A DNA stretch of 6,123 nt from a virus. Its lineage: Duplodnaviria; Heunggongvirae; Uroviricota; Caudoviricetes. The translations under genes were made by a program, and so were the position numbers. Below the pieces are notes generated by a model. That model ran no database searches. It was not told where the DNA came from and saw only the letters and a program-made list of their open reading frames with translations. The stretch lies in the IMG/VR virus record IMGVR_UViG_2537561689_000012. One strand, written 5' to 3'. Every line of letters starts with the position of its first letter. Positions within the stretch are counted from its first letter, which is position 1. Below, one piece after another: positions 3,062 through 4,132 of the stretch.

Positions 3062-4132
3062 TTACCCCCTGAAGCCCGGCGGAATTTCGTTATCCGGTTC
3101 AGAAATATGATTCACACAACGCTGGTTGTTCGTGCCGCTTACCGGGAGCAACCAGGGGTTCTCAAAATTCCGGTCCGGTCCAAAAAACGTCGTCGCTCGC
3201 TGAACAAATTCCGTTCCCGTTTTCCCGGTAGCCGCCAAGTATCTTGCGTAACGCCTCACGCCATCCAGCATGGCCTCTGGTGGCACCCCCTCGCGTAATC
3301 TGGCCTTCCAGGCACTGAAAGCGGATTTCTTCGGGTTTGCCCCAGCACGCAACGGGTACTCCCGCCAGACCTGTTCGAACACATCCGGATAATCCACTCG
3401 TCCCACAGACTGCCCGGTGTTTTCCGGGACTACCCGATCGGCTTCCCGCTGAATGGCGGAATCGGCTTCAGGCTGCTGCAGTTGGTGTGATTGCTCCGCC
3501 CTTGCGGTCATCACCTGCTGCACAGCGCCCGAATCGGCTTTCAGCGCATACGCTGAATCGGCTTCCGGTGTCGTGCCTGCTGGCTGACCAAGATTGACGG
3601 TCTGAACATCCCCTGCCTGGTTCGTGGCGTTTTTTACGCCATGGACCATAGTGTTTTGATCTTCTTGATCTGTATCTTTATCTGTATCTTTATCTGTCGT
3701 GACTCGTCGTGACATGTGCGTGACATTTCGTGACGCGCCGTGACAATTGCCATTTTGTTCCCGCTTTCTTTCCCTCTCTCGCTGCGCCCTCTTGCGCTCT
3801 GCAGGAGATTTTGCGGTTTGCGAAATATTGCCGTTGTCCTCTTTAAGCACCTGGCGTTTTTCCCATCCAGTGATTAAATCACCATCAAGTACCCGCCCCT
3901 GCATCGTCTGCAAAATTGAATCAATTACCTCTTCTGTCACGTCGAGCGCACTTGCCAAATCTTCTGTCGTGACATCAATGTGACCTCGCGTGACATTTCG
4001 TGACGCGCTCACCAGGAGGTGGATATACACTGCCATCACTGTTGCAATTGGCTGCCCTGACACCCTGGCAATTGTTCGCCACTTAGGGTCATTTGGCATG
4101 TCATGCCATAATCTGAGCCAAGCGTTAGCCAT
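3062..4132 (-). CDS. Phage replication initiator, lambda-O-like / YdaU-like organisation: N-terminal DNA-binding region, low-complexity acidic linker, conserved C-terminal domain
   Basis: ORF track gives 3062..4138 from a GTG. I prefer the ATG at 4130-4132 (MANAWLRLWH...) because SD GAGGTG lies about five nt upstream. Position directly after the cro-like and YdaT-like genes. Iteron array and tandem repeat are embedded in the linker-coding region. The linker translates as DKDTDKDTD. Confidence 0.65.
   Translation of the reverse strand: MANAWLRLWHDMPNDPKWRTIARVSGQPIATVMAVYIHLLVSASRNVTRGHIDVTTEDLASALDVTEEVIDSILQTMQGRVLDGDLITGWEKRQVLKEDNGNISQTAKSPAERKRAQRERERKREQNGNCHGASRNVTHMSRRVTTDKDTDKDTDQEDQNTMVHGVKNATNQAGDVQTVNLGQPAGTTPEADSAYALKADSGAVQQVMTARAEQSHQLQQPEADSAIQREADRVVPENTGQSVGRVDYPDVFEQVWREYPLRAGANPKKSAFSAWKARLREGVPPEAMLDGVRRYARYLAATGKTGTEFVQRATTFFGPDRNFENPWLLPVSGTNNQRCVNHISEPDNEIPPGFRG
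3668..3697. repeat. Tandem repeat (ATCTGTATCTTT) x2.5, i.e. ATCT(G/T)T x5; AT-rich tract next to the iterons
   Basis: Seen directly: atctgtatcttt atctgtatcttt atctgt. Encodes TDKDTDKDTD on the minus strand. Confidence 0.8.
3698..3744. repeat. Iteron-like array: five CGTGAC hexamers at 3698, 3708, 3719, 3729, 3739 (10-11 bp phasing); putative origin iterons inside the rep gene
   Basis: Seen directly. The helical-repeat phasing and the adjacent AT-rich tandem repeat mirror the lambda origin lying inside gene O. Origin function is inferred. Confidence 0.55.
3968..4004. repeat. Second iteron-like cluster: CGTGAC at 3968, TGTGAC at 3979, CGTGAC at 3989 and 3999 (10-11 bp phasing)
   Basis: Seen directly. 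Contains a perfect 21-bp copy (3988-4008, GCGTGACATTTCGTGACGCGC) of 3718-3738. Confidence 0.5.

Follow-up and report, generated by a model that had tools for sequence, protein, structure and literature searches.

Where does replication begin on a lambdoid prophage whose initiator gene carries short, regularly spaced repeats within its own coding sequence? This question is raised by the viral record IMGVR_UViG_2537561689_000012, a stretch of 6,123 bp (the window, by which we mean the whole of the DNA analysed) that derives from an Escherichia coli lambdoid prophage remnant and encodes a replication initiator, rep, 100% identical to the NZ_CP025916 coding sequence (CDS) WP_001262391. A first-pass annotation, made from the letters alone, had placed a putative origin of the lambda type within rep. 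We estimate a probability of about 80% that positions 3654-3744 form the core of the prophage replication origin, a site inside the initiator gene that the initiator itself would bind. Comparative and statistical evidence upholds the proposed origin, but its kinship with lambda proves not to be one of family, and a second array of the same repeat in the gene had been missed.

The five CGTGAC cores reported in the first-pass annotation are present on the plus strand at 3698, 3708, 3719, 3729 and 3739, as direct reading and a pattern search agree, and Tandem Repeats Finder returns the same array (array 2) as a repeat of period 10 with 4.9 copies (3696-3745). Array and neighbouring AT-rich repeat both fall, as had been stated, in the linker-coding part of rep, downstream of the folded N-terminal domain (N-domain); array 2 occupies nt 389-435 of the RefSeq CDS, which starts at 4132, or nt 395-441 of the open reading frame (ORF) that the ORF list extends to a GTG codon at 4138 (3062-4138, minus strand). 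Across both strands of the window CGTGAC occurs 11 times, against an expectation of 2.7 +/- 1.6, and 0 of 200 dinucleotide shuffles reach this count; no hexamer of any kind occurs five times within 50 bp in 300 dinucleotide shuffles (the maximum was four, once). In the longer ORF, GTCACG, the core as read on the coding strand, starts at nt 135, 145, 166, 395, 405, 415, 426 and 436, so that all three reading frames are used and the cores do not amount to a peptide repeat. When synonymous codons were shuffled within the gene, with the protein and its codon usage held fixed, permuted versions of rep contained 1.57 +/- 1.0 copies of GTCACG compared to the eight observed, a number reached in 0 of 5000 permutations. 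We conclude that the core repeats are a feature of the DNA and are not forced by the protein. The same gene is found, at 98-99% identity, in the isolated phages Evi and Tritos, and in the complete 40-kb Evi genome the two rep arrays are the only clusters of at least three cores within 45 bp. DnaA boxes (TTWTNCACA, at most one mismatch) number 12 in the window against 11.6 expected, with none in 3640-3760, and a DnaA-dependent origin was rejected for this lack of enrichment.

The AT-rich tract beside array 2 has the properties expected of the DNA unwinding element that we propose it to be. The tandem repeat ATCT(G/T)T previously noted at 3668-3697 is there, in units of ATCTGT and ATCTTT, and is reported by Tandem Repeats Finder at 3663-3697 with period 12 (2.9 copies, 95% matches) as well as with period 6 (5.5 copies). 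The interval 3650-3699 is the GC minimum of rep (GC fraction 0.32), and 3654-3694 is the least stable 40-step duplex of the entire window, with a nearest-neighbour free energy (dG) of -44.7 compared to a mean of -56.8 (standard deviation 4.2). Two GATC sites lie in the tract (3658 and 3667), and the peptide encoded in this region is of low complexity (TDKDTDKDTD).

The array that had escaped attention (array 1) lies about 260 bp from array 2, further up rep and inside the coding region of the N-domain, where it encodes the loop between helix 3 and helix 4 (approximately amino acids 43-56). The amino acids of this loop track the DNA motif, and cores are gained or lost two units (21 bp) at a time, which preserves the reading frame. 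Within each lineage, the peptides specified by the two arrays are alike (SRNVTRGH and SRNVTHMS; NATERGRT and TNATERNQT). The initiator probably binds array 1 as well, as a second site, and we put at about even odds a bipartite origin, in which the linker array and its tract would be joined by a second core array set in codons that specify a surface loop in the DNA-binding domain of the initiator. A single inverted core copy close to array 1 is kept in a Pseudomonas phage and altered in an E. coli locus (L002).

To compare rep with its relatives, one genome per species was scanned with the N-domain alignment, which yielded 75 loci from gamma-, beta- and alpha-proteobacteria and a few other metagenome-assembled genomes (MAGs). 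A phased hexamer array, mostly with 10-bp spacing, is present in the linker-coding region (approximately nt 280-560 from the gene start) in 63 of these 75 loci, at a position in the gene that corresponds to array 2, and 47 loci possess both arrays, with array 1 at approximately nt 85-210 and a median distance of 258 nt between the two. The core itself differs by lineage (GTCACG, GTAACG, GCAACG, CGAACG/GAACGC or GTGACG); the Enterobacter hormaechei homolog (L112), for example, has GTAACG. Among loci with the GTCACG core, spacing is 10 bp 97 times and 11 bp 26 times, and in the 25 such loci every core position carries 1.5-2 bits, five of the six being invariant, whereas the spacers hold almost no information. 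Different cores are found within a single host genus (Pseudomonas, Acidovorax and Serratia), which favours a binder encoded by the element over a host factor as the specific reader. When the core of each locus was set from the array-2 region alone, it recurred 2.35 times per 120 nt in the array-1 region, and at least twice in 32 of 46 loci, compared to 0.04-0.07 copies in three control regions, where 0 of 46 loci have at least two; the two arrays therefore evolve in concert.

The order of elements is likewise conserved. In most loci a tract rich in purines and in AT comes directly after array 2 ((C)AGATAAAGATA..., AGATAAGAGAAGAAGAG... and the like). Over the 63 loci, the AT content of the 40 nt past the last counted array-2 core is on average 62% and the purine content 73%, compared to gene-wide values of 43% and 57%; in a few of these loci this 40-nt window is without a purine- or AT-rich tract. 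In E. coli relatives whose similarity is confined to the N-terminal half of the gene, five plus six cores are retained, and a Pseudomonas phage gene with 70% DNA identity retains four cores at exact 10-bp spacing, a TCTGTATCTTTATCT tract and the upstream array. A scan of viral contigs returned only E. coli loci of approximately 99% identity, too alike for a strong test of polymorphism; among them 4 of 54 core columns vary compared to 178 of 530 others, a single divergent sequence having raised the latter figure.

Across all contexts examined, one gene product alone constantly accompanies the arrays, namely the N-domain. It is paired with C-terminal halves of differing kinds (that of the window, a genuine DnaT domain (PF17948), and others), and the genes downstream differ too (none, lambda-P-like, dnaB or DnaC-like); a sister gene at L002, for example, encodes a full DnaT DNA-binding domain (PF17948, E 1e-17) and is followed by a P-like gene, which also occurs at L003. 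Recombinant E. coli genes break at window positions of approximately 3657-3675, right at the tract, indicating that N-domain, arrays and tract move as a single unit, as is the case for lambdoid O genes. The two-array layout recurs with a second type of N-domain that bears no obvious sequence resemblance to the first, in some E. coli and Shiga toxin (Stx) phage rep genes. Two such genes, L172 (1499-2614, minus strand; E. coli 2009C_3996) and L173 (1501-2589, minus strand; Shigella Stx phage 75/02), encode a window-type C-terminal half behind this different N-domain and contain two arrays of their own repeat, AAGGGGCTT, 11 bp apart, at approximately nt 172-199 and 442-466, after which comes a purine-rich tract. 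The second AAGGGGCTT array is inverted in phage 75/02, and a DnaC-like gene lies downstream. The proposed bipartite layout with its overlapping codes may be the sole part of the putative origin that a specialist would find unexpected.

Several family members depart from the common pattern. In the rep gene of Erwinia phyllosphaerae (L111), cores at approximately nt 141-180 and 411-450 are spaced 5 bp apart and overlap (GTCACGTCACGTCACG), some of them being inverted, a packing that differs from the usual one core per helical turn. The genes of a Serratia MAG (L129) and of Pantoea (L147) are devoid of array 1 and instead contain palindromic ACTACGTAGT-type repeats at approximately nt 326-360, upstream of a different domain (GISRNPWARCKDLK...). 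Two 50.9-kb circular Pseudomonas aeruginosa 'plasmids' (L174, CP124671.1, and CP137943.1) are whole lambdoid phage genomes in which a homologous rep module precedes a gene with a DnaB-like helicase domain; as a sign of episomal replication these circular records are weak evidence.

Rep is matched over its full length by the PHROG family phrog_3729, 'replication initiation protein' (E 1e-256), and PHROG 'replisome organizer' families match it at E 5e-6 and 1.5e-4. It has no Pfam match above threshold; PF09681 (Phage_rep_org_N) aligns with residues 5-123 along profile positions 1-119 of 121, below threshold at 16.7 bits (cut-off 23.3; E 0.008), and is matched by 3 of 15 N-domain family members. 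A profile search of Protein Data Bank (PDB) sequences with the N-domain gave no match, and structure comparison identifies its fold as a winged helix. The N-domain family is large: when public data are clustered at 50% identity, it has approximately 4,500 representatives. Seven metagenomic proteins of approximately 180-190 amino acids (P0043, P0061, P0062, P0076, P0107, P0108 and P0116), with 56-72% identity to the N-domain across most of the query, bear HNH endonuclease domains (PF01844, PF14279).

The C-terminal half of Rep carries a DnaD-like region and a DnaT-like tail, the last 24 residues being approximately 70% identical to the C-terminal tail of the host primosomal protein DnaT. Rep is not itself a DnaT: its match to the NCBIfam DnaT model is confined to the tail (19 bits against a cut-off of 201), and PF17948 is absent. 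The same tail of approximately 60 nt is common to otherwise different phage initiators (mEp460, HannyBb) and so behaves like a portable host-interaction motif; the preprimosome literature offered nothing usable on its role. A protein search with the C-terminal domain retrieved mostly fragments and frameshifted E. coli copies. Elsewhere in the linker, AAGCCGAT occurs four times on the coding strand (3437-3568, spacing 24/72/24), encoding (P)EADS repeats. We rejected these copies as a further DNA element, since all lie in one frame and are more simply, and probably, a peptide repeat (EADS).

How does this locus compare with origins that are already understood? The putative origin is analogous to oriλ within gene O and is of a well-known kind, in a textbook arrangement. 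The comparison with lambda made in the first-pass annotation stands for position and order: the lambda iterons at nt 349-433 of gene O are followed by an AT-rich region, just as array 2 at nt 389-435 is followed by its tract. The early operons are syntenic (cro, cII-like, initiator, Ren-like), N-domain and origin form an exchangeable module in both families, and some relatives of the window gene pair the N-domain with a lambda-P-like gene. The comparison fails for family, iteron architecture and the P gene. Lambda O matches PF04492 (Phage_rep_O) at E 6e-36, whereas the window N-domain does not match it, and aligning the N-domain family with lambda O by hhalign gave a probability of 0.06; a wider hhalign comparison of the N-domain alignment with lambda O, SPP1 G38P, TP901-1 Rep and Tuc2009 Rep found nothing, single-sequence targets making this a weak test. 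Lambda has four iterons of approximately 18 bp (18-19 bp), 20-24 bp apart, which are inverted repeats bound by O dimers, in contrast to the five asymmetric, directly repeated 6-bp cores 10-11 bp apart in the window; and directly downstream lambda has a P-type loader gene where the window and Evi have the DUF977/Ren-like gene. The relationship is thus one of analogy, not of membership. Iteron plasmids and P1 combine a winged-helix initiator of the RepA/RepE type with direct repeats beside an AT-rich unwinding element and a distant second cluster of iterons, and the window resembles them in its winged-helix fold, direct repeats, AT-rich tract and second array.

The closest known system in design is that of Lactococcus phage Tuc2009, whose rep gene contains four direct NCAACCA cores, 11 bp apart, at approximately nt 337-380, followed by a purine-rich tract (AGGATAGGATAGG...). 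As is proposed for the window, the origin region lies within the replisome-organizer gene just after the N-terminal domain, and the GenBank record of Tuc2009 states that rep 'contains origin of replication'. The replisome organizers of Tuc2009 and TP901-1 are reported to bind direct repeats in their own genes that serve as the origin (PMC8965321), and TP901-1 (ORF13) can be read in the same way, with repeats after the N-domain beside a low-complexity, AT- or purine-rich stretch. These phages have Gram-positive hosts; the N-domains of Tuc2009 and the window show no significant sequence similarity, and their C-terminal domains differ (Rep_Org_C, PF06926, in Tuc2009). One N-domain homolog is annotated with a Tuc2009-type 'replisome organizer C-terminus', a Pfam scan of that protein detecting no family. 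In Bacillus phage SPP1, oriL lies within gene 38 and comprises repeats in direct orientation together with an AT-rich unwinding element (PMC6316719). SPP1 and the window share two separate binding regions for one initiator, those of the window being predicted, but the second SPP1 site, oriR, is approximately 13 kb away (PMC6316719), compared to approximately 260 bp, in the same gene, for the window. The SPP1 initiator G38P (PF09524), which works with its own loader G39P and helicase G40P, has no sequence similarity to the window protein. Applied to lambda O, SPP1 gene 38, TP901-1 rep and Tuc2009 rep, the hexamer test detected no second array. Finally, the 'domesticated O/P' pair DopC/DopE has the architecture of the DnaT-domain sister genes with their P-like gene (PMC5509034), and dopC is free of iterons (PMC5509034). 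Neither DnaT nor DopC is associated with iterons, in contrast to the window protein, which matches DnaT in the tail only.

We propose the following mechanism. Following transcription of rep from the cro-side early promoter and translation of the message, monomers of the initiator would bind the five GTCACG cores head to tail through the N-terminal winged-helix domain; the cores being one helical turn apart, every bound copy would lie along the same side of the helix. The nucleoprotein complex so formed is predicted to destabilise the adjoining strand-asymmetric AT-rich tract (3654-3697), whereupon the C-terminal half of Rep would bring in the host DnaB/DnaC machinery. Array 1 (3968-4004) would provide a second binding site for Rep, cooperating by looping or exerting a control function. 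The analysis establishes the repeats with their phasing, their independence of the protein code, their conservation and joint variation in the family, and the weak duplex of the tract; binding, melting, helicase recruitment and origin activity are inferred.

Several points weigh against the assignment of 3654-3744 as an initiator-bound origin. A core of 6 bp is short for a specific site. At low root-mean-square deviation, the N-domain is structurally nearest to the N-terminal domains of DnaD, which are known more for oligomerising than for recognising specific DNA sequences. The AGATAA of the purine-rich tract is read in one frame, as part of an acidic linker of the DKDKD type, in 28 of 31 loci scored, so that part of the conservation of the tract could lie at the protein level; in three loci the frame differs (QIREE, not DKD), which speaks modestly for a DNA-level constraint on the tract as well. 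The AlphaFold model of the C-terminal domain is too poor (pLDDT, the predicted local distance difference test score, 59.7) to support the helicase-recruitment step, and truncation by IS3 and IS100 means that this particular prophage copy may never fire. A literature search on these iterons, on oriJ/Rac and on iterons of DnaT-like prophage initiators retrieved no description of this origin.

The strongest competing explanation, though we regard it as unlikely, is that the arrays are control sites at which the initiator binds (autoregulatory roadblocks or sites for handcuffing, as incA of P1 and incC of F) and that the true origin lies elsewhere. Transcription of rep runs across both arrays, array 1 lacks a neighbouring AT-rich tract, and two arrays approximately 260 bp apart recall plasmids in which origin iterons are split from control iterons. 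Array 2, however, adjoins the least stable DNA of the window, with a comparable tract in most family members, and the complete Evi genome contains the motif in no further cluster. The experimentally defined origins of Tuc2009, SPP1 and lambda, moreover, have the same position and order (PMC6316719, PMC8965321). Less probable still, and in our view quite improbable, is that the sites are read by some other host or phage protein, in which case they could form an array of operators, serve in packaging or act as a centromere for partition. Arrays of direct repeats of 10-11 bp are also typical of centromeres of the ParR type (parC of plasmid R1, for example), but partition genes are absent here and the terminase genes of Evi are approximately 10 kb away; DnaA boxes are neither enriched nor present in the tract; and both the variation of the core between elements of the same host genus and the constancy of the N-domain beside varying neighbouring genes run counter to such a reader. 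That the repeats are a mere by-product of slippage or of a low-complexity peptide linker, with no function as DNA, is hardly credible, for although the region does encode TDKDTDKDTD and the nearby AAGCCGAT copies in their single frame resemble a peptide repeat, the cores occupy all three frames, exceed every synonymous permutation, stay invariant between free spacers in the 25 GTCACG loci and change jointly in both arrays across lineages.

The proposed origin sits in an early region with the gene order cI, cro, cII-like YdaT, rep, Ren-like DUF977 (coordinates in the table below). Just past the DUF977 gene the prophage is cut short by two insertion sequences (IS), IS3 and IS100, so that the module now resides in a defective prophage, which has retained its repressor. 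DNA matching rep occurs in about half of complete E. coli genomes (2699 of 5426), in 1647 of which one place covers at least 80% of the gene. The complete Evi phage encodes no helicase, loader or other replication gene of its own besides rep.

Table. Features of the rep locus and its surroundings in the 6,123-bp window
Feature	Position	Strand	Basis or remark
Array 2: five CGTGAC cores (GTCACG on the coding strand), spacing 10, 11, 10, 10	3698-3744	+	Sequence reading, pattern search, Tandem Repeats Finder
AT-rich tract, T-rich on the plus strand and purine-rich (AGATAAAGATA...) on the coding strand; proposed DNA unwinding element	3654-3697	+	
Array 1: CGTGAC at 3968, 3989 and 3999, TGTGAC at 3979, spacing 11, 10, 10	3968-4004	+	Overlooked in the first-pass annotation
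Single inverted core copy over Asp-Val-Thr codons, relevance uncertain	3936-3941	-	Pattern search; 27 bp from array 1
rep, replication initiator ('phage replisome organizer'), 356 aa	3062-4132	-	RefSeq start
N-terminal winged-helix domain, presumed iteron-binding domain	3746-4132 (coding region)	-	
DnaT-like tail, last 24 codons of rep (QRCVNHISEPDNEIPPGFRG; ..SEPDNEIPPGFRG)	3065-3136	-	phmmer against PDB chains 6aep, 2ru8, 9zbt
cI-type repressor gene	4834-5607	+	Part of window gene order
P22-Cro-like gene	4626-4841	-	
YdaT/cII-like gene	4204-4629	-	
DUF977/Ren-like gene	2599-3021	-	
IS3 element	1631-2497		
IS100 (IS21 family), istB	310-1092		

What would such an origin mean for lambdoid phages? 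The textbook picture of their replication is left unchanged. A defined origin together with a lineage-specific 6-bp core code would make it possible to predict among which prophages and incoming phages an initiator is contested, a competition that may result in origin-titration immunity like the 'phage-encoded resistance' of lactococci, and would offer a handle for rep-dependent vectors. The cores of the different lineages would form a naturally occurring set of specificity variants with which to study DNA reading by a winged-helix initiator, and array 1 would be a testable case of overlapping protein and DNA codes. If the bipartite layout is true, it would represent a general and undescribed design, in which the initiator gene holds both the origin and a second, cooperating or controlling, site.

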